The position numbers and the translations under genes were made by a program. A DNA stretch of 64,000 nt from an uncultured Chloroflexia bacterium (GTDB lineage Bacteria; Chloroflexota; Limnocylindria; Limnocylindrales; CSP1-4), in contig CAVVJT010000002.1 in the NCBI GenBank assembly GCA_963748625.1, forward strand, positions 32,001-96,000, read 5' to 3'. Below are positions 3,744 through 49,809 of this stretch, in pieces. The notes under the pieces were generated by a model. That model was not told where the DNA came from. It saw only the letters and a list, made by a program, of their open reading frames with translations, and searched no databases. How positions within the stretch are numbered: position 1 is the stretch's first letter; the number at the start of each line of letters is the position of its first letter.

Positions 3744-3755
3744 ACGAGGGTTGCA

Positions 3756-3828
3756 GCCGGGTCCGCCGCCCCCAGCCGGGTGCGCCGCCCCCCAGCCGGG
3801 TGCGCCGGGTGCGCCGCCCCCCAGCCCC
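3756..3828. repeat. Short imperfect tandem repeats (GCCGGGTGCGCCGCCCCCCA-like)
   Basis: About 3 copies visible directly downstream of hutU. Confidence 0.6.
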
Positions 3829-8858: not shown

Positions 8859-9521
8859 TCAGCCCGTCAGCGCCACCACCAGCAGCAGCTGGCCCACGTG
8901 GTACGTGGTGATCACGCCCATCCGCAGCGGTCTGGGCGCCCTCCCGGCCTCGTCCCTGCCCACCACGAACTGCCCCCAGCCGAGCAGCGCATCGGACGCG
9001 ACGAACAGCCACGCGCCGACGATGGCGACCGGGATGCCGGTCCGGGTCGCGACAATGGCCATCGCGCTGATGGCTGCGAGGTAGACGGCAACCGGCCCGC
9101 TCATGCCCCTCGGGCGGGCGGCGGCCACGAGCCTGCGGCCGACCGTCACCGCCACGATCCCCGCCATGGCGATCCCGGCCAGCAGCCAGGCGGGACTGCC
9201 GTCGAGCCGGGCGAAGGCGAGCGCGTACGCGAGATGCGCCACGAGGAATGCGATGAGCCCGGGCAGCAGGCGTCCCGGCGGGAGCAGCAGCACGTCCCCG
9301 ATCAGCGATGCCGCGAGCGCGACCACGAGGAGCGCCCGGACGACCACGTCCGAGTCCGCCCACGGCCAGGTCATGGACGCGAGCAGCAGGAGTCCGAGGA
9401 CCGCCGGCTTCGCGACCCGCTCGATCAGGCGGGCACGTGAGCCTTCCGCCCAGACCGCGGCCCAGTCCACGGCCGCCGCGAGGGCAGCCAGCCCCAGCAG
9501 GACGGTGGCCGGCATGGGCAT
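8859..9521 (-). CDS. Lysoplasmalogenase / YhhN family membrane protein
   Basis: AKP, GDVLL, FLVAHLAY, FVASDALL and TYHVGQ motifs. Confidence 0.9.
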   Translation of the reverse strand: MPMPATVLLGLAALAAAVDWAAVWAEGSRARLIERVAKPAVLGLLLLASMTWPWADSDVVVRALLVVALAASLIGDVLLLPPGRLLPGLIAFLVAHLAYALAFARLDGSPAWLLAGIAMAGIVAVTVGRRLVAAARPRGMSGPVAVYLAAISAMAIVATRTGIPVAIVGAWLFVASDALLGWGQFVVGRDEAGRAPRPLRMGVITTYHVGQLLLVVALTG

Positions 9522-9559
9522 GGCGTCAAGCCTTGCTGCGGGTCAGGCCCTGCTCCGTG

Positions 9560-10234
9560 TCAGGCCTTGCCGCGCGACTCCAGGAGCACCGTCGTCGTCT
9601 CGGGCGGCAGGCTCGACAGGGTCACCGACAGCTTCGCCTGCACCGTGGGCTCAGCACCCATCTCGTGGAGGAACTTCTTGAGGGCCTCTTCGCAGTCCGC
9701 CTCTTCCTCGCAGACCGGCATGGGCACCACGATCTTGGGATCCAGCTGGGCGATGAGCTCGGCGGCCTTGGTGGGCGAGAGGGCCCCGCCGATGGGCACG
9801 CAGGCGATGTCGATCCGGCCGATGTCGCCCAGCTTCTCCTCGGTCATCTCGTGCCCGATGTCGCCCAGGTGGATGGTGTGCAGCCCGTCGAGCTCCGCGA
9901 CGAACGCCGTCTGGCGCCCGCGCTGCCTGCCCTTGACGCCGTCGCGATAGGTGCGCACGCCCGTAATCAGGACGTCGTGCACCTCGTACTCGCCCGGTCC
10001 GTCAAGCACGAACGCGTTCTCGAGGCTGGTGGGGATGATCGTGCCGCCATCACGCGACAGCCTCCCGGTCGCCTTCTTCGCCAGCGGTGCGTCGTCAGGA
10101 TGGCTGTACGTGATGACATCGCCCGTGATCCCGCGCCCGGTGGGCCCGACGATCGAGGGGTAGGGGTCGTTCACGACGACGGCTTCCTTGCCGCGCAGCC
10201 GGATGCAGGTTCGTCCGTACCAGGTGAGCTCCAT
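9560..10234 (-). CDS. MBL-fold metallo-hydrolase-like protein (Lactamase_B_3 type)
   Basis: ELTWYG, NDPY, GPGEYEV, HLGDIG and PKIVVPM; the HxHxDH motif is degenerate (SHPDD). Confidence 0.85.
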   Translation of the reverse strand: MELTWYGRTCIRLRGKEAVVVNDPYPSIVGPTGRGITGDVITYSHPDDAPLAKKATGRLSRDGGTIIPTSLENAFVLDGPGEYEVHDVLITGVRTYRDGVKGRQRGRQTAFVAELDGLHTIHLGDIGHEMTEEKLGDIGRIDIACVPIGGALSPTKAAELIAQLDPKIVVPMPVCEEEADCEEALKKFLHEMGAEPTVQAKLSVTLSSLPPETTTVLLESRGKA

Positions 10235-10287
10235 GCCGGTGATTCTGACACAGGCCGCTCATCCCGGGCGTATCGCGTTCGCCGGAC

Positions 10288-10367
10288 AAAGAGAAGGACC
10301 GGAGATGCCTGCCCAATCGGCATCTCCGGTCCCGAGGGAGGGAGGATGGAACCTGAGGGAGTGTTCC
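10288..10367 (-). ncRNA. Candidate small RNA (CU-rich, two hairpins, intrinsic terminator)
   Basis: Minus strand reads GGAAC-ACUCCCUCAG-GUUCC, then AUCCUCCCUCCCUC, then a 14-bp stem GGACCGGAGAUGCC/GGCAUCUCCGGUCC followed by UUCUCUUU. A promoter lies immediately upstream. Confidence 0.55.
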
Positions 10368-10374
10368 GAGGAGA

Positions 10375-10403
10375 ACCATAGTCCGCGCCTGATTCACCTC
10401 CAA
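10375..10403 (-). promoter_or_regulatory. Sigma70-like promoter of the candidate sRNA
   Basis: TTGGAG-17 nt-TATGGT on the minus strand, 7 nt before the first hairpin. Confidence 0.5.
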
Positions 10404-10491
10404 CCGGGCGAACGGTAAAGAAACGCACACCTTGGAAGCGGAACCTTCACCTTTCGAGGCAGCCCCCGGATCGCGTGGCATCATCCGCGCC

Positions 10492-11874
10492 ATGATCCCC
10501 ACTGCCAGACTGACCCGCCTCGCTGCCGTGCTCGCGGTCGCGCTCGCTGCCACCGCGTGCGGTGCCGCCGTTCCCACCGCATCGGGCACGCCCGTGCCGA
10601 CCATCGAGTCCCCGGGCTCGTCGGCCCCAGCCGCCACCCCGGGTCCCGACCCGACGCCCGTCGGCGGCTCGACCGGGTCCCCCGCGGCCGCGCTGACCTG
10701 TGACGACGACGTCACCGGCAGCCCGGCCGTCTCGGACGACACCGATCCCAACGCGCCCACCTACGCCGAGATCGAAGGGCAGGTCCAGGCGCTCCGCGGC
10801 ATCACGGCCACCACCCCGGTTGCCCGTGGCGTCTTCGACCAGGCCAGCCTGTGTGCGTACCTGCGCACGAGCTTCCGGGAGGACAACCCGGCCGACCTCA
10901 TCGCTGCCACGGAGGCGCTCTACAAGCACCTGCTCCTGATGCCCGAGGACGTGTCGCTCGAACAGCTCTACCTCGACCTGCTCACAAGCCAGGTCGCCGG
11001 GCTCTACGACGATGACGACAAGCACATGTACGTGGTCACCTCGGACGGTGATATCGGACCGGCCGAGGAGATCACCTACGCTCACGAGTTCACCCACGCG
11101 CTCCAGGACCAGCAGTTCGTGCTCAAGCAGCTGATGGGCGAGGACTTCGACCAGAGCGACCGCTCGATGGCGCGTGCCACGCTGGTGGAGGGCGACGCCA
11201 CGCTGCTGATGTCGCTCTGGGCCCAGCAGAACCTGACTGCGGCCGAGCTGGGCGAGGTCGCGTCCACCACCGATCCCGCCTCCCAGGCGGTCCTGGACCG
11301 GATGCCCGCGATCCTCAAGGACCCGCTGCTGTTCCCGTACACGCAGGGCCTGACCCTCGCGCTGACCGCGTTCACGCAGGGCGGCGGCTTCGCGGGGGTT
11401 GACGCGCTGTATGCCAACCCGCCGGCCTCCACCGAGCAGGTGCTGCACCCGGAGAAGTACGAGGCCGCGGAGGCGCCCGTGGACGTGGTGTTCCCGTCCG
11501 ATCTGGCGGCGCGGCTGGGCGACGGCTGGAAGGTGTCGATGGAGGACACGATTGGCGAGCTGCTCCTGGGCATCGTGCTCAAGGAGGGCGGCGCGACCGC
11601 CACCGGCGACGCGGCGGCAGGGTGGGGCGGCGACCGGATCGCGCTCATCGAAGGCCCCGGCGGCGAGGTGGCGGTCGTGATGGACACGGCGTGGGACACC
11701 TCCGCCGATGCCGACGAGTTCGCGGCGGCCCTCGAGCCGATGGCCGCCAAGTTGACGGCTGCCGGGCGATCCGCGTCCGTGCTGCGGCCATCCGAGGGTC
11801 GCGTGGTCCTGGTGTCGGCGACATCGCCTGACGTGATGGGCCGCGTGGCGAACGTGCTGGGCCTCGCCGAGTAG
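10492..11874 (+). CDS. Lipoprotein with zinc metallopeptidase-like domain (Hvo_1808-like)
   Basis: Signal ending ATAC, HEFTHALQDQ (HExxH), EGDA, FPY and STEQVLHPEKY motifs. Confidence 0.85.
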   Translation: MIPTARLTRLAAVLAVALAATACGAAVPTASGTPVPTIESPGSSAPAATPGPDPTPVGGSTGSPAAALTCDDDVTGSPAVSDDTDPNAPTYAEIEGQVQALRGITATTPVARGVFDQASLCAYLRTSFREDNPADLIAATEALYKHLLLMPEDVSLEQLYLDLLTSQVAGLYDDDDKHMYVVTSDGDIGPAEEITYAHEFTHALQDQQFVLKQLMGEDFDQSDRSMARATLVEGDATLLMSLWAQQNLTAAELGEVASTTDPASQAVLDRMPAILKDPLLFPYTQGLTLALTAFTQGGGFAGVDALYANPPASTEQVLHPEKYEAAEAPVDVVFPSDLAARLGDGWKVSMEDTIGELLLGIVLKEGGATATGDAAAGWGGDRIALIEGPGGEVAVVMDTAWDTSADADEFAAALEPMAAKLTAAGRSASVLRPSEGRVVLVSATSPDVMGRVANVLGLAE

Positions 11875-14088: not shown

Positions 14089-17000
14089 ATGTCGGGGAAG
14101 ACTCGTCCCGCGGGGCGGCAGGTGGTGCGGCGTGCCGCGGCCCTGCTGGTGGCCGTCGGGCTCATCACGGGCATCCAGCCCACCCTCGTCGCGCCGGTGC
14201 GCGCGGCGGACTCGCCGGGGGCTCCCGCAGCCCTCGCCGACCCCAACCTCCAGTGGAAGGACGCATCGAACGCCCTCGGTGGCGCGGACGACAACAGCGT
14301 CGCCACCGCCAGCGGCGACAACAAGGACCAGGGCTTCCGGGACTTCAGCTTCGGCATCCCCGCCGGGTCGATCATCAAGGGCATCACCGTCACCGCCAAC
14401 GCATGGGCGCCGGACACCGACTGCCGACTCGGTGTGCGCCTGTCGGGCAACGGCGACGCCAACACCAACTGGACCAGCTGGTCGTACAAGAACCTCTCCA
14501 CGGTGGACAGCAGCATCCTGACCTTCGGGTCTGCGAGCGACACCTGGGGCGCGGTCTGGGATCCCACCCAGACGACCAACGGCAACTTCCGCCTCCAGGT
14601 CCGCAATGACGCCCCCAGCGGCTGCGCCAGCACCCTCATCACCTCGCTCGACTGGGTCAGGGCCAGCGTCGACTACGAGACGATCACCCCTCGAACCAAG
14701 GACAACGACCCGATCAGCAAGACGGTCTGCGACGTCGCCGACTTCAACTTCGTCGTCGACATGTCCGGCTCCATCGGCGAGCAGAGCGGCAATCCGTCCA
14801 ACCTGCCCGATCTCCAGGCCGGCATCAACGGCTTTGTCGTGGCGTTCCAGGGCGCCGGCGGCGACGGCAAGTACAGCCTCACCCGCTTCAACGACAACAG
14901 CGCGAACACGCTGACCAGCGGCTACGTGTCGCCCTCGGACTTCCAGAGCGCCGTGGACGGCCTGTCGAGCCCGAGTGGCTGGACGCCCACCTCCAAGGGC
15001 ATCGACACCGGCAGGACCAACAACAGCGGTGGCCGCTCAGGCGCGCAGAACATCATGTTCGTGCTGACCGACGGCTCGCCCAACCAGCCTCCGGTCAACC
15101 CCGACACCCGCATTCCGGCCGTCTGGCTCGGCGCCGCCAACGCGGCGATCGCCTCCGCTGACGCCGCACGCAGCGGCTACGTCGTGCAGGCCGTGTACCT
15201 CGCCACCGACGGCGACCCCGGCGACACGTCCCTGCCGTTCTCGCCCGCGGGTGACCGCCAGTGGGCCACCAAGGTGATGGACGAGATCGGCGGCGGGAGC
15301 CACCTCAACGCCGACTTCGCGAACTTCGCGCTCGACCTGCTCGACCAGATCGGCTGCAACCCCCCGCAGATCACCATCGCCAAGACCGCGGTCGAGAGCC
15401 CCGTGAATGCGGGCGATCAGATCGCGTTCGACATCAGCGTCACCAACTCCGGCGAGGAGACCGCTGACGCCGTCAAAATCCACGACGTCCTGCCGGGCGA
15501 CGACAGCCTCGCGTGGGAAGTCGACAGCCAGGCCTGCTCCATCGGCAAGCAGGTGGTCGACACCAAGGACCGGTGGGTCCTCGACTGCACGATCGACAAC
15601 CTCAAGGTCGGCAAGGACAACGCCAAGACCGTGAGGGTCAGCACCAAGACCGCGCCCGCGTGCGGCACCTACGACAACACCGCCAGCTTCACCTGGAAGG
15701 ACCAGAAGGGGAGCGCAGACGCGTCCGTCAAGGTCCTCTGTGCCGCCATCTCGATTACCAAGGAGGCTGACAACGCCTCCGTCACCGCGGGCGACCCGAT
15801 CGGCTTCACGATCACCGTCAAGAGCACGGGCGATGCCCCGGCCAAGGGCGTGAAGGTCAGCGACACGCTGCCCGCCGATGCCGGCCTCGACTGGGCCATC
15901 GACGGCGGCGATGACGCGGCCAGCTGCTCCATCGCGTCCGGCACGCTCACGTGCGACTTCGACGCCATGGCACCCGGTGCCTCCAGGAACGTCCACATCT
16001 CGAGCCCCACGACCCGGGCGACGCTTGCCGACAGCCCTGTCGACAACACCGCGAAGGTCACGACCACCAACGACGGCAAGGACACGTCCTCGGACAAGGT
16101 CGACATCCTCGCGGGCAGCATCAAGATCGCGAAGGATCCCGACAAGGACGTGGTGGACGCCGGTGATCCGATCGGCTTCACCATCACGGTCACGAGCACC
16201 GGCCCCGGCACGGCCAGGGGCGCAGTCCTCACCGACACCCTGCCCACCGATGCCGGCACCTCGTGGTCGGTCGACGGCGGGACCGCCGCCGGCACCTGCA
16301 GCATCGACCTCGGTGTCCTCACCTGCAACCTCGGCGACCTGCCGAACGAGGCCGTCCGCACCGTCCACCTAACCAGCGGCACGTCCACGGCGACGGGCGC
16401 CGACTCGCCCGTCCACAACGTGGCGAAGGTCACCACCACCGCCGACGGCGAGGCCCAGGACGACGCCGACGTCGTGGTCCTGGTCGGCTCGCTCGCCTGG
16501 TCCAAGTTCGACGCCCACCAGCACCTGCTCGGCGGCGCCAGCTTCCAGGTCACCGGCCCGTCCGGCTTCGACGAGACCGTCGAGGACAACACGGGCGCCC
16601 CGGGCTACTCCGGCCTTGATGCCGACGAGACCGCGGGCGAGTTCCTCCTTGAGGACCTCATGCTCGGCGAGTACAGGGTCACCGAGACCGTGGCCCCGGC
16701 CGGGTACATGCTCGACGAGACCCCGCAGTCGGCCATCCTGACCCGGGAGCAGCTCGACGCCTCCATCGAGAGCCCGTTCGTCAACACGCTCGGCGAGCTG
16801 AGCTGGACCAAGGACAACGGCAAGGGCACGCCCATCGGCGGCGCCACGTTCTCCGTGGAGCCCGACCCGTTCACCGGCACCGGCACCCTGTCCGTGAAGG
16901 ACAACGACGCCAACGACCAGGACAAGACGGCCGGCGCGTTCCACCTTGAGGACGTCCGCGTGGGCAGCTACACGGTCACCGAGACCGCGGCGCCCGAGGG

Positions 17001-18741
17001 CTACGTGCTCGACGAGGGCTCGTGCTCGATCACCGTGGGTGAGGTCAGCGTCGATGCCAGGCTGTCGTCCGAAGTCCCGGCGTGCGCGTTCCACAACACG
17101 CCCATCCCGCCGGCCATCGCCATCATCAAGACCGCCGGCGGCAGCGCCGGCAGCCAGGCGGCCGACGACACCGCCTACAAGGCCGAGTCGTTCGCCGGCA
17201 ACGTCACCTACAAGTACGTCGTCACCAACACCGGTGAGGTCCGCCTGACCGGCGTCTGGGTCGTCGACGACAACGGCACCCCGGCCAACACCGAGGACGA
17301 CTGGCTCCCGGCCTGCTATGCGGGCGACCTCCTGCTCGTCCAGCCGTTCCAGCTCGCGGCAGGCGCGTCGGTGACGTGCTACGCGACCATGGACATCACC
17401 GAGGACACCACGAACGTCGCGACCGCCTCGGGCACGAGCGTCGGTGAAGGCACCGAGGTCTCTGCCAACGACGATGCCGCGGTCAGGATCGTGGGCCCTG
17501 CTGTGACGATCGTGAAGACGGCCGGTGGCTCGGCTGCCAGCCAGGTCGCGGACGGCGAGACCTACGCGACCGAGAACGGCACGGACAACGTCGTCTACAA
17601 GTACGTGGTCACCAACACCGGCGACACGCCGCTGACCATCACCAGTCTCTCCGACGACAAGCTCGGCTCGATCTCGGTCGAGGACTGCGACACGTGGAGT
17701 CTCCCTGACAAGGGCGACAAGGCCACGTGCACCGTCAGCGCGTCGATCTCGAAGGACACCGAGAACACCGCCAGCGTCAAGGCGACGTCCCCGGCAGGTG
17801 CCGAGGTCCAGGCCACCGACAAGGCGAACGTGATCCTCCGCCACGTCGCCATCGAGAAGGCCAACGACGCGGAAGCGCCGCTCCTCGAGGGTGACAACGT
17901 TCACTACACCCTGACCTTCGACGTCCAGAACGGGCCGATCACCAGCATGACGGTGACCGACACGCTGCCCGCCGAGGTCGTCAACCCGCGCGACTTCAGC
18001 GTCGCCCCCGCGTCCGTCGTGGGCCAGGTCATCACCTGGAACCTCTCGAACGTGGCCGACGGCGCCACCATCACCTACACCGCCACCATCGCCGACGGCA
18101 CCGCCGCCGGGAGCTACACCAACGTGGCCGAGATCACCGACGGCCCGTGCGTCGCCGGCGACTGCGATGACGACTCCACCGTGCGGGTGGTCACCGCCTC
18201 GATCAGCCTGGTCAAGACCGCTGGCAACGCTGCCGACGGGACGACCCTCAGGGTCGACAAGCCGGGCAACGTGATCTTCACGTACGTCGTGAAGAACACC
18301 GGCACCGCAGACCTCGAGAACCTCGAGCTCATCGATGACAACGCCACCCCGGCGAACACCACCGACGACGTCAAGGTCACCTGCCCGAGCACGACGCTCG
18401 CGGCCGGAGCTTCGATGACCTGCACCGCCACCCTGCCGGTGGTCGTCGGGTCCAGGACCAACATCGCCGTGGTCACTGCCAACCCGGAGCTCGACAACGA
18501 GACCGAGGTCAGCGACAGCGATGACGCCGTCGTCCTGGTTCCGGAGCCGGTGAAGCCGACCCCGAAGCCGACGCCGAAGGTCACCCCGCCCCCCACGTCC
18601 ACCATCGACGGCACGGACAACGGCACGACCGGCACCACCGGCCTGCTGCTCGTCTTCGCCGCCCTCGCCGGGCTCATGCTCGCGGTCGGGTACCTCAACC
18701 CGGCCCGCGCCACGGCCCGCAAGCGGAGCCGCAGGGGCTAG
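14089..18741 (+). CDS. Large secreted surface adhesin: vWA + DUF11-like + SpaA/CnaB-like Ig repeats + TPPPT-TM-basic C-terminal signal
   Basis: Signal peptide (…LVAPVRA-ADS); MIDAS motif DMSGS…TDG; repeated I.K.VTNTG..N.A domains; E-box YRVTETVAPAGY; C-terminus VTPPPTST-TM-RKRSRRG. Confidence 0.9.
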   Translation: MSGKTRPAGRQVVRRAAALLVAVGLITGIQPTLVAPVRAADSPGAPAALADPNLQWKDASNALGGADDNSVATASGDNKDQGFRDFSFGIPAGSIIKGITVTANAWAPDTDCRLGVRLSGNGDANTNWTSWSYKNLSTVDSSILTFGSASDTWGAVWDPTQTTNGNFRLQVRNDAPSGCASTLITSLDWVRASVDYETITPRTKDNDPISKTVCDVADFNFVVDMSGSIGEQSGNPSNLPDLQAGINGFVVAFQGAGGDGKYSLTRFNDNSANTLTSGYVSPSDFQSAVDGLSSPSGWTPTSKGIDTGRTNNSGGRSGAQNIMFVLTDGSPNQPPVNPDTRIPAVWLGAANAAIASADAARSGYVVQAVYLATDGDPGDTSLPFSPAGDRQWATKVMDEIGGGSHLNADFANFALDLLDQIGCNPPQITIAKTAVESPVNAGDQIAFDISVTNSGEETADAVKIHDVLPGDDSLAWEVDSQACSIGKQVVDTKDRWVLDCTIDNLKVGKDNAKTVRVSTKTAPACGTYDNTASFTWKDQKGSADASVKVLCAAISITKEADNASVTAGDPIGFTITVKSTGDAPAKGVKVSDTLPADAGLDWAIDGGDDAASCSIASGTLTCDFDAMAPGASRNVHISSPTTRATLADSPVDNTAKVTTTNDGKDTSSDKVDILAGSIKIAKDPDKDVVDAGDPIGFTITVTSTGPGTARGAVLTDTLPTDAGTSWSVDGGTAAGTCSIDLGVLTCNLGDLPNEAVRTVHLTSGTSTATGADSPVHNVAKVTTTADGEAQDDADVVVLVGSLAWSKFDAHQHLLGGASFQVTGPSGFDETVEDNTGAPGYSGLDADETAGEFLLEDLMLGEYRVTETVAPAGYMLDETPQSAILTREQLDASIESPFVNTLGELSWTKDNGKGTPIGGATFSVEPDPFTGTGTLSVKDNDANDQDKTAGAFHLEDVRVGSYTVTETAAPEGYVLDEGSCSITVGEVSVDARLSSEVPACAFHNTPIPPAIAIIKTAGGSAGSQAADDTAYKAESFAGNVTYKYVVTNTGEVRLTGVWVVDDNGTPANTEDDWLPACYAGDLLLVQPFQLAAGASVTCYATMDITEDTTNVATASGTSVGEGTEVSANDDAAVRIVGPAVTIVKTAGGSAASQVADGETYATENGTDNVVYKYVVTNTGDTPLTITSLSDDKLGSISVEDCDTWSLPDKGDKATCTVSASISKDTENTASVKATSPAGAEVQATDKANVILRHVAIEKANDAEAPLLEGDNVHYTLTFDVQNGPITSMTVTDTLPAEVVNPRDFSVAPASVVGQVITWNLSNVADGATITYTATIADGTAAGSYTNVAEITDGPCVAGDCDDDSTVRVVTASISLVKTAGNAADGTTLRVDKPGNVIFTYVVKNTGTADLENLELIDDNATPANTTDDVKVTCPSTTLAAGASMTCTATLPVVVGSRTNIAVVTANPELDNETEVSDSDDAVVLVPEPVKPTPKPTPKVTPPPTSTIDGTDNGTTGTTGLLLVFAALAGLMLAVGYLNPARATARKRSRRG

Positions 18742-49732: not shown

Positions 49733-49809
49733 GCCCCCATCGTCTAGAGGCCTAGGACGCCGCCCTTTCAAGGCGGAGATCACCGGTTCGAATCCGGTTG
49801 GGGGTACCA
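49733..49809 (+). tRNA. tRNA-Glu (anticodon TTC)
   Basis: Acceptor stem GCCCCCA/TGGGGGT, anticodon arm CCGCC-CTTTCAA-GGCGG, GGTTCGAATCC T-arm, encoded CCA. Confidence 0.97.

Follow-up and report, generated by a model that had tools for sequence, protein, structure and literature searches.

A candidate gene for a small RNA (sRNA) of about 80 nt is found upstream of an MBL-fold hydrolase gene in the stretch of DNA analysed here (the window, 64,000 nucleotides). The reading that we favour, with a probability of roughly 55%, is that of an independent, trans-acting sRNA gene confined to the class Limnocylindria, the product of which would repress translation by pairing with Shine-Dalgarno sequences. 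The candidate lies on the minus strand at positions 10286..10367, with its 5′ end placed from the −10 hexamer and its 3′ end from the terminator tail; transcription would start at G10367, about 7-8 nt downstream of the −10 hexamer. The predicted fold begins with a 5′ hairpin (10348..10367, minus strand; GGAAC / loop ACUCCCUCAG / GUUCC), followed by an unpaired tract consisting only of C and U, AUCCUCCCUCCCUC (10334..10347), the putative seed; an invariant 19-mer, GUUCCAUCCUCCCUCCCUC (10352-10334), spans this tract. The terminator hairpin (10295..10333) comprises 14 Watson-Crick pairs and a closing G-U pair (15 pairs), is predicted by folding as well as by covariation, and exposes a conserved loop, GAUUGGGCA (10318-10310). 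It ends in a pyrimidine-rich tail, UUCUCUUUGU (10286..10295), whose C/U-rich sequence varies in relatives. All minus-strand features listed in the initial annotation are present, namely TTGGAG, the 17-nt spacer, TATGGT, the two hairpins, the C/U tract, the tail and the downstream CAGAAT.

The two-hairpin structure is the predicted minimum free energy fold (−38.1 kcal/mol, z = −3.5); it coincides with the centroid and accounts for 55% of the ensemble, and none of 200 dinucleotide shuffles folds as well as the native element. A terminator scan of positions 9400-11000 returns one terminator-like site, located at the element. Furthermore, single-base insertions and deletions occur within the element among close relatives, which rules out a conserved reading frame. 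Three features of a stand-alone sRNA gene, its own promoter, an intrinsic terminator and no conserved open reading frame, are found at this locus.

Conservation is evident already within the genus, where BLASTN finds the segment 10432-10288 at 78-84% identity in 21 of the 24 other genomes, well beyond what chance would give. Within the family to which the window belongs (f1), a covariance model matches 104 of 108 genomes. In a second Limnocylindria family (f4) it matches 48 of 50, a tally that takes in the unpublished genomes G226, G232 and G250. The C/U-rich tract, which had been described as exposed, is predicted to be unpaired and is indeed the best-conserved part of the element: it is invariant in all 20 genus sequences, save one deleted U in L002, and near-invariant in 19 loci drawn from family-wide model matches, where L048, with AACC in place of AUCC, is the sole exception. 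Both f1 and f4 have the core UCCAYCCUCCCUCC. A search of public genomes for the exact 19-mer gives at least 119 stretches, almost all of which bear a Chloroflexota or Limnocylindria label; the choice of 80 loci by the exact 19-mer and the mutual relatedness of the genomes both inflate the apparent conservation.

The stems, in turn, vary with compensation. In the terminator, 12 of 14 pairs show compensatory changes and 97.1% of the cells are paired, with covariation values reached by 0 of 500 shuffles; the alignments A4 and A6, having been fitted to the model, are biased towards its structure. The 5′ hairpin (helix 1) is 89.8% paired, both sides changing in two of five pairs, and its stem shifts register or lengthens, to GAACC/GGUUC in other f1 genera; in f4, some loci have GGAAACC/GGUUUCC, and folding predicts a longer 5′ hairpin for this family. 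G-U pairs occur on the minus strand only, which fits a minus-strand transcript and gives the strand of the RNA. Regarding the terminator loop, almost every f1 copy retains the core AUUGGGC (AUGGGC or AAUGGGC in a few), as do f4 and four of the five copies found in genome G147. An invariant unpaired tract between stems that vary with compensation is the pattern typical of a base-pairing sRNA. A pseudoknot between the loop GAU(U)GG and CCAUC was also considered and rejected: its two sides are invariant and so offer no covariation in its favour, and it does not hold in f4.

Genome G147 carries five tandem copies of the gene, and every copy has a promoter and a terminator of its own. No two of the five tracts are alike (one example is CCAACUCUUCUCUCUCU); they consist almost purely of C and U, apart from a CAA triplet (three copies) and a G (one copy). 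Differing, nearly pure C/U tracts give this array the look of seed-pairing sRNA families. The cuckoo family of sRNAs has a tandem multi-copy arrangement.

Outside the class, a sample of 137 other Chloroflexota genomes yields three weak model matches and no convincing one. The best of the three, in G366 (33.5 bits), was rejected as a chance C/U-rich stretch next to a terminator, being found in one of the 41 genomes of its family, namely G366 itself. Among further families, two f2 matches are weak (E ~5e-4), and ahead of the MBL gene at one f2 locus lies a C/U-rich stretch that has diverged and scores 17 bits; in f3, the element is absent upstream of the MBL gene in four of four loci. Judged by these sequences, the family is confined to the class Limnocylindria within the genomes searched.

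The promoter region shows a conserved but unusual organization. The −10 hexamer TATGGT (10375..10380, minus strand), recognised as such from the outset, is kept across genera as TANNNT: positions 1, 2 and 6 are T, A and T, while positions 3-5 are free, giving TATGGT, TAAGGT, TAGTGT, TATCGT, TATTGT, TACCTT, TAGCGT, TACTGT, TACCGT and similar variants. The TTGGAG originally taken for a −35 box (10403-10398, minus strand, 17-nt spacer to TATGGT) is present in the sequence but unconserved in relatives, and this assignment is abandoned; a consensus promoter scan reports no sigma-70-type site at the element. Conserved in both position and sequence across the alignments is a proximal element, TGAATC (10391..10396, minus strand), which lies 10 nt upstream of the −10 hexamer and partly overlaps the expected −35 place. 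It reads CTGAAYC in most genera and CTTAAG in G147 (CTTAAG-N10-TATTGT); the form in f4 and at some loci of f1 is ATTCAC. A distal element, GTTTCTTTACCG (10413..10424, minus strand; core TTTCTTWA at 10423-10416), is located about 35 nt upstream of the −10 hexamer; it is near-invariant in f1, appears as GTTTCTTAAG in the f4 alignments and recurs in G147 ahead of all five tandem copies. Its use as a regulon marker was rejected, since TTTCTTWA occurs just twice in the 4.6-Mb, 71% GC genome. The CTTAAYC portion of the distal element, about 23 nt away, resembles the proximal element, and the pair may be read as a direct repeat. A DNA-binding activator probably recognises the repeat-like TTTCTTAAYC and CTGAAYC, in which case the proximal element, at its distance of 10 nt from the −10 hexamer, would replace the −35 box.

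The favoured mechanism follows the predicted architecture: between the 5′ hairpin and the strong terminator hairpin, the unpaired C/U tract of 13-14 nt would pair with the purine-rich Shine-Dalgarno regions (GGAGG, GGGAGG) of several mRNAs, block binding of the 30S subunit and thus repress translation in trans. The invariant terminator loop may serve as a handle for an RNA-binding protein. The 16S rRNA tail of the genome is the usual ...GAUCACCUCCUUUCU, and GGAGG-type sites are therefore available for pairing. It had been remarked that many genes near the locus seem leaderless, and genes of this type are common in the genome as a whole (about 340 of 3049 crude ORFs), where Shine-Dalgarno-led starts are also present; leaderless mRNAs, including those of both neighbour genes, would escape the RNA.

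Target prediction by a duplex scan of 16,995-17,029 candidate starts (17,029 with a set of 3054 crude ORFs) is not discriminating, with strong duplexes at thousands of candidate starts, mostly internal GTG codons; such duplexes are abundant because the genome is G-rich (71% GC). Perfect complements of the tract of at least nine nucleotides occur at 263 sites in the genome, the best ribosome-binding-site-like duplexes lying at C7:689739 and C10(-):927351, and conservation of the Shine-Dalgarno sequence at candidate sites cannot separate targeting by the sRNA from translation of the ordinary kind. Outside the sRNA gene, the genome contains no complement of the invariant tract in its entire length. 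Pairing with multiple targets does not account for the fact that the entire 19-mer and the terminator loop are invariant in two families, and Shine-Dalgarno pairing likewise does not account for the fixed adjacency to the MBL gene (51 of 51 loci).

This invariance is an argument for an alternative that we consider unlikely, in which the RNA titrates a protein: the tract and the AUUGGGC loop would bind, for instance, a KH-domain protein or a reader of the 16S tail, and act by sequestration instead of mRNA pairing. A tract of 14-19 nt and a terminator loop that are both invariant across two families fit a protein handle better than a degenerate seed, and the loop is kept in the G147 paralogues despite their differing tracts. 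Moreover, the tract AUCCUCCCUCC resembles the 16S tail GAUCACCUCCUUU, and the genome encodes KhpA/B-type KH proteins, while neither Hfq nor CsrA was found in it. Conversely, the divergent G147 tracts are more readily explained by diversified seeds than by a single protein site or by mimicry of 16S, and the neighbouring genes, for a hydrolase and a surface protein, suggest no protein partner.

That the RNA base-pairs with partners other than ribosome-binding sites appears just as doubtful. Such an RNA might pair with G/A-rich coding stretches, with another sRNA as a sponge, or with leaderless 5′ ends through their start codons. The last variant draws on the variable base of UCCAYCC, which yields CAU in f1, CAC in f4 and CAA in L048 as well as in three G147 copies, the complements of AUG, GUG and UUG; in addition, GUUCCAU can pair with AUGGAGC, the first nucleotides of the MBL reading frame. 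Against this, changes in the CAN triplet are not accompanied by changes in the MBL start codon, most f4 loci combining CAC with ATG. Furthermore, GUUCC is sequestered in the 5′ hairpin, and the lack of an extended complementary site in the genome applies to such partners as well.

The neighbouring genes bear on whether the element could instead act in cis. Downstream on the minus strand lies the gene for an MBL-fold hydrolase without an assigned function (9560..10234, ATG at 10234; Pfam PF13483, E = 1.8e-32), for which the closest solved structure is TM0207 (1vjn). The divergent upstream gene (10492..11874, plus strand) encodes a lipoprotein-like protein with a HEFTH motif; it has no Pfam family, and its score against the NCBIfam Hvo_1808 family surface protein model is 128.6 bits, under the cut-off of 200. 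This gene is the divergent neighbour in 30 of 30 f1 and 20 of 20 f4 loci and is replaced by ArgS in G147. The MBL gene adjoins the RNA in all of these f1 and f4 loci and in G147, and is co-oriented with it in 49 of the 51. Such constancy would fit a cis-acting leader or attenuator that controls the MBL gene, or a dual-role RNA, the hairpin stopping or passing transcription from upstream; in f4, moreover, the MBL start lies only about 20-50 nt past the end of the model match.

Several observations speak against a cis-acting leader. The claim that the MBL gene has its own −10 box holds: CAGAAT (10242..10247, minus strand) precedes its ATG by 7 nt, the corresponding hexamer in relatives is TAGAAT, TACAAT or AAGAAT, and in f4 TAGCAT, TAGAAT, TACACT or TACCAT stands 9-11 nt before the ATG, directly after the terminator. 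A conserved TANNNT-type box is thus located between terminator and start codon in both families, at a leaderless-type distance. The spacer between RNA and MBL gene is unconserved, with lengths between about 20 and about 500 nt. In two of the 30 f1 loci, L043 and L044, the MBL gene is inverted (convergent), and G147 carries its five complete units in tandem. A single fold dominates the prediction, with no competing antiterminator fold in the predicted ensemble of the element, and no Shine-Dalgarno site that the tract could mask precedes the MBL start codon, either at the window locus or in the alignment of relatives. Constant co-orientation, a target gene lacking its own promoter and an antiterminator fold, as expected of a cis leader, are therefore not what is seen here. 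The sRNA gene is independent of the MBL gene, and the initial description of a stand-alone unit, with its own TANNNT box and terminator, stands.

RNA libraries provide further context, on the basis of Logan contigs of four runs (shares of words in the run search 0.04-0.18; contig depth and gaps are uninformative). In the soil metatranscriptome X10, contigs from relatives cover the RNA; these contigs show neither transcript ends nor strand. Two X4 contigs bridge the terminator interior (10325) and the MBL gene (10208), as a cis leader would predict, and some contigs extend into flanking DNA, so that read-through or carry-over of DNA is possible. Overall, a cis-acting or dual-role element is improbable.

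A more speculative scheme, to which we give about as little credence, is a translation-mode switch operating across the class: when induced by its activator, the RNA would mask Shine-Dalgarno sites or titrate a factor reading the 16S tail, thereby favouring several hundred leaderless mRNAs, with the adjacent leaderless MBL hydrolase as a partner, for example in RNA turnover.

Searches for known families return no relative of this RNA. With the 4227 families of Rfam 15, which presumably include the models of 6C (RF01066), cuckoo and RsaE, the window gives nothing at the element at the gathering score. At E ≤ 10, positions 10150-10550 yield two unrelated matches only (mir-BHRF1-1 and Atu_C7), and at E ≤ 1 nothing is found at the element in the loci of four relatives. 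The RNAs with which the element had initially been compared, 6C, cuckoo and RsaE, are consequently functional analogues only, and the host, a Chloroflexota MAG of the class Limnocylindria, falls outside the groups that carry them. A full-text literature search found no description of this RNA. On the favoured reading, the element is the founding example of a new sRNA family.

Among described systems, the csRNAs of Streptococcus are comparable in plan: in these RNAs (PMC3091779), two stem-loops flank an unpaired region complementary to Shine-Dalgarno sequences, and the CiaR-type promoter is (N)TTAAG-N5-TTTAAG, 10 nt upstream of the −10 box. The same order of stem-loop, unpaired anti-Shine-Dalgarno region and stem-loop is found here, with CCUCC contained in the tract; both are short genes consisting of promoter and terminator, present in several copies and sometimes in tandem (PMC3091779). 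Both promoters also lack a normal −35 box and have a direct repeat with the proximal copy 10 nt upstream of the −10 hexamer. In contrast to the CiaR pattern, the repeats of the present element are CTTAAYC/CTGAAYC (CTTAAG in G147), spaced about 23 nt centre to centre. Furthermore, the two RNAs share no sequence or model similarity, Rfam being without a match, and the host here belongs to Chloroflexota rather than Firmicutes; the seed is longer and pure C/U, and the terminator loop is conserved.

The cuckoo/CcsR RNAs of Alphaproteobacteria (RSs0680, alpha-r14) display CCUCCUCCC in the loops of 2-4 adjacent hairpins (PMC4615179). In both cases strong sequence conservation is limited to a C/U anti-Shine-Dalgarno-like motif (CCUCCUCCC there, CCUCCCUCCC here), the stems change with compensation, and many members are reported to keep their genomic context. 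The position of the motif differs, as CCUCCCUCCC occupies a single unpaired linker between two hairpins and not a loop; the phylum is also another one, and no covariance model matches. 6C RNA of Actinobacteria has two hairpins, each with a run of at least six C in its loop (PMC1950547). It resembles the element in being a small two-hairpin RNA with exposed C-rich sequence in a high-GC genome. Unlike in 6C RNA, loop 1 here is ACUCCCUCAG (ACCCCUCAG in relatives), with at most about five C interrupted by U and variable between genera, and loop 2 is GAUUGGGCA, which does not have the C run of 6C RNA; the present host, moreover, is not an actinobacterium.

Limnocylindria, a class of bacteria from soil and freshwater, have no cultured representative that we know of, and the genome records examined here are all MAGs. 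To our knowledge, hardly any work has dealt with RNA regulators of Chloroflexota. The present element provides a well-delimited candidate sRNA gene of this class, with a covariance model, a promoter signature and a conserved seed that can be tested. The RNA can be sought directly in metatranscriptomes from soil, sediment and freshwater, and the conserved promoter repeats should lead to the regulator of the sRNA. Both Shine-Dalgarno-led and leaderless genes occur in these genomes. An sRNA of the anti-Shine-Dalgarno type would therefore act on one class of mRNA only, which constitutes a testable idea on how such bacteria divide translation.

The minimum-energy fold of the candidate RNA is exactly a two-hairpin shape, with a free energy of −38.1 kcal/mol and a 55% share of the ensemble. 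Sequence reading and the fold give, on the minus strand, a 5-bp 5′ hairpin (GGAAC/GUUCC, loop ACUCCCUCAG; 10367-10348), an unpaired C/U tract, AUCCUCCCUCCCUC (10347-10334), and a terminator stem of 14 Watson-Crick pairs and one G-U pair with the loop GAUUGGGCA (10333-10295), followed in the sequence by the tail UUCUCUUUGU. The fold is unusually stable (z = −3.5; none of 200 shuffles folds equally well), and the only terminator-like site returned by a simple scan of 9400-11000 lies at the element. The hairpin, unpaired tract, 14-bp stem, tail and downstream CAGAAT described in the initial annotation are all found on this strand. The 85-aa and 76-aa open reading frames over the stretch are mechanical calls, and a conserved reading frame is ruled out because close relatives differ by single-base indels.

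Upstream of the RNA, the −10 hexamer TATGGT (10380-10375, minus strand) is preceded, across a 17-nt spacer, by TTGGAG (10403-10398), originally read as the −35 box. The sequence is present and the −10 is conserved as TANNNT, but TTGGAG is not conserved in relatives. The −10 hexamers of relatives (TATGGT, TAAGGT, TAGTGT, TATCGT, TATTGT, TACCTT, TAGCGT, TACTGT, TACCGT and TAGCCT, among others) retain T1, A2 and T6 and leave the middle free, the pattern expected of a genuine −10. No sigma-70 consensus promoter is detected in 9400-11000 by a simple scan. Two further upstream elements are conserved: a distal TTTCTTAAYC(G), some 35 nt from the −10, and a proximal CTGAAYC, at exactly 10 nt from it. 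The latter is replaced by CTTAAG in the genome G147 and by ATTCAC in a second Limnocylindria family (f4) and in one group of the window's own family (f1). Their sequences suggest a direct repeat spaced by about 23 nt, at which an activator might bind. The 8-mer TTTCTTWA occurs just twice in the host genome (4.6 Mb, 71% GC) and therefore does not mark a large regulon.

The element is present as a single copy in its own genome. The proposed BLASTN comparison of the intergenic region with relatives bears out its conservation: 10432-10288 is matched at 78-84% identity in 21 of the 24 other genomes of the genus, and no match is obtained in 16 genomes of the sister family with ~1.1-Mb genomes. A first covariance model, built from 20 genus sequences, finds matches in 104 of 108 f1 genomes, covering all 26 genera sampled, and weakly in 2 of 42 genomes of the sister family f2. 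In a class-level search with the same model, whose tally takes in three unpublished genomes as counts, matches are found in 44/44 f1 genomes, in 48/50 f4 genomes (E 1e-9 to 1e-6), in 1/49 f3 genomes (E = 0.004), in 0/6 f2 genomes and in the single f5 genome not at all (0/1). R2, a broader model based on 54 sequences from f1 and f4 and run over 150 Chloroflexota genomes, matches 3/3 f1 and 10/10 f4 genomes and gives three weak matches in the other 137. The best of these outside matches (G366, 33.5 bits) was rejected, being confined to 1 of 41 genomes of its own family, namely itself. The genomes are mutually related and the samples are drawn from larger groups; all counts describe the genomes searched. 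Upstream of the MBL orthologue, four f3 genomes lack the element, and one f2 genome carries a diverged C/U-rich stretch and hairpin (17 bits) about 60-230 nt before the MBL start (ACCUCCCUCCCGU ... hairpin CCAGGAGGG/CCCUCCUGG ... ACCUCCCCCUCCACCC; locus L196, G025:C2), the C/U-rich stretch being preceded by CTTTACC and GATTCAC. This may be a remodelled homologue overlooked by the models.

The exact 19-mer GTTCCATCCTCCCTCCCTC is present in at least 119 stretches of a collection of species-representative genomes. The 80 loci listed are titled as Chloroflexota, Chloroflexia, Candidatus Limnocylindrales or Limnocylindria MAGs, apart from two titled Verrucomicrobiia; in the latter contigs (L091 and L098) the exact Limnocylindria 19-mer occurs together with a match to the RNA over its full length, and an error of binning or labelling probably explains their titles. 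From the titles of the loci, the window therefore derives from an uncultured member of class Limnocylindria. The genus sequences show no variation, or next to none, in the 19-mer GUUCCAUCCUCCCUCCCUC and the terminator loop, and the terminator stem varies. The 19-mer is retained, apart from one variant, in 19 loci taken from matches of the family-wide model, and a set of 86 loci agrees on it, 80 of these having been selected by the exact 19-mer. The core common to f1 and f4 consists of UCCAYCCUCCCUCC and the loop AUUGGGC. In the 54-sequence alignment, which is fitted to the model and biased in its favour, 12 of the 14 terminator pairs have changed on both sides, 97.1% of cells are paired, and a shift of the partners by one to three columns lowers pairing to 39-52%. 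None of 500 shuffles reaches the observed terminator covariation values, and G-U pairs at several positions are compatible with a minus-strand transcript only. The 5′ hairpin retains its structure, with register and length shifting from genus to genus; its f4 form is longer and begins at a conserved GCGAG.

In G147, five tandem RNA genes spaced 220-250 nt apart occupy the minus strand of locus L202 (G147:C1:3555200-3559200; locus positions 1504-2506). All five units carry both promoter elements, distal and proximal, along with a −10, and they share one terminator; the C/U tracts differ among them (CCCCUUCCUCCCUCCCU, CCAACUCCUCUCUCCCUCC, UCUGUCUCCUCUCCCUCCC, CCAACUCUUCUCUCUCU and CCAACUUCUUCUCUUCCCUCC). 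The same locus also contains, at 3744-3782 on the plus strand, a sub-threshold Rfam hit for the Guanidine-II (mini-ykkC) riboswitch, at 24.7 bits vs a gathering score of 32.

As read from the sequence, the element has the build of a putative seed-pairing sRNA, with a hairpin on the 5′ side, a conserved tract that is left exposed, and a terminator, and its paralogues differ in their tracts. This tract consists of nothing but C and U in the copy of the window, as in most others, and within it lies CCUCC, the anti-Shine-Dalgarno core; the 16S tail of the same genome reads ...GGAUCACCUCCUUUCU. Such a tract would pair with ribosome-binding sites, and leaderless mRNAs would escape the RNA. In a rough ORF set, an estimated ~630 starts above internal background carry a 5-mer Shine-Dalgarno motif and ~340 of 3049 have TANNNT 5-10 nt upstream, so both mRNA classes exist; the latter feature is ~11-fold above internal control codons (2.2% vs 0.2%), in agreement with the earlier remark that many genes here appear leaderless. 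Hfq and CsrA were not found in the 98%-complete genome, which encodes KhpA/B-type KH proteins. Apart from the RNA gene, the genome holds no site complementary to the whole tract. Targets could not be named, because G-richness swamps both the 263 perfect complementary sites of at least 9 nt and the energies of duplexes at 17,029 candidate starts. The complementary-site scan also returned five head-to-tail 46-nt repeats (...CCCGCCTGGCGGGAGGATGGCCGCGGAGAACGCCGCTGACGCAG) outside the window, on the minus strand of contig C7 (~394309-394493). Pairing with ribosome-binding sites is the best-supported mode of action, at slightly better than even odds. Two other roles are still alive, namely protein binding or a decoy function and a functional tie to the MBL hydrolase, because the invariance of the full 19-mer and of the terminator loop and the constancy of the MBL neighbour lack explanation.

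The fixed position speaks most strongly for a cis role on the MBL gene. In 30/30 f1 and 20/20 f4 loci the element lies between a divergent HExxH lipoprotein-like gene and the downstream MBL-fold hydrolase (PF13483; nearest solved structure TM0207), a gene order kept although the hydrolase is 40-44% identical in f4. The divergent gene (10492-11874, plus strand) encodes a 460-aa protein in which LAATAC is a signal of lipoprotein type and the motif HEFTH is present; the protein has no Pfam family and matches the NCBIfam Hvo_1808 family surface protein below cut-off. From its −10-like CATCAT, 7 nt before the ATG, this gene appears leaderless. Against a cis role, the MBL gene has its own −10 after the terminator in both families. 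The −10-like CAGAAT noted initially stands 7 nt before its ATG (10234, minus strand), and in f1 and f4 a hexamer of TANNNT type, additional to that of the RNA, occupies this place between terminator and start, 7-11 nt before the ATG, which therefore indicates a leaderless-type promoter; no Shine-Dalgarno site precedes the start in either family. Furthermore, the RNA-to-MBL spacer ranges from ~20 to ~500 nt and is unconserved, the MBL gene is encoded on the other strand and converges with the RNA in L043 and L044, five units precede it in G147 (where an ArgS gene replaces the lipoprotein gene upstream), and a single fold with no competitor is predicted. The proposal of a stand-alone unit is upheld by the unit's own −10 and terminator, the variable spacer, the two inverted loci and the tandem copies, and we place the probability that the element is an independent RNA gene at about 0.9. 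With regard to expression, 15 RNA-labelled runs contain a small part of the sequence words of the stretch (20 matching entries in all, from 14 studies); the four inspected consist of assembled contigs, which carry no information on ends, strand or level and may include DNA carry-over. In the soil metatranscriptome library X10, the four contigs listed, from relatives, cover parts of 10288-10396. In X4, two contigs reach from the MBL start into the terminator (10208-10325), which leaves room for read-through. At most, these contigs hint weakly at expression.

The suggested Rfam comparison gave no model match to the element in the window or in the loci of four relatives. At gathering score, the sole Rfam 15 match in the whole window is a tRNA gene (49733-49806, plus strand), and at E ≤ 10 only two unrelated matches fall in 10150-10550. 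The 6C and cuckoo RNAs cited in the initial annotation are functional analogies. 6C RNAs have two loops of at least 6 C each (PMC1950547), and CCUCCUCCC occupies the loops of the 2-4 hairpins of Cuckoo/CcsR RNAs (PMC4615179); when tested, both defining features are absent from the element, and its host belongs to the Limnocylindria, not to the actinobacteria as these analogies might suggest. The nearest known RNAs in plan are the streptococcal csRNAs, in which two stem-loops likewise flank an unpaired region of anti-Shine-Dalgarno type (PMC3091779). In their promoters, a repeat for a response regulator lies 10 nt before the −10, and these RNAs occur in multiple copies per genome; repeat sequence and spacing, host and RNA sequence all differ from those of the element. 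Full-text searches, with subscription journals outside their reach, returned no description of an sRNA in Limnocylindria or of the motif in Chloroflexota. The element is a real, well-delimited candidate sRNA gene and founds a new family that is restricted, among the genomes searched, to Limnocylindria, and whose kind, the C/U-rich anti-Shine-Dalgarno sRNA, is already known.
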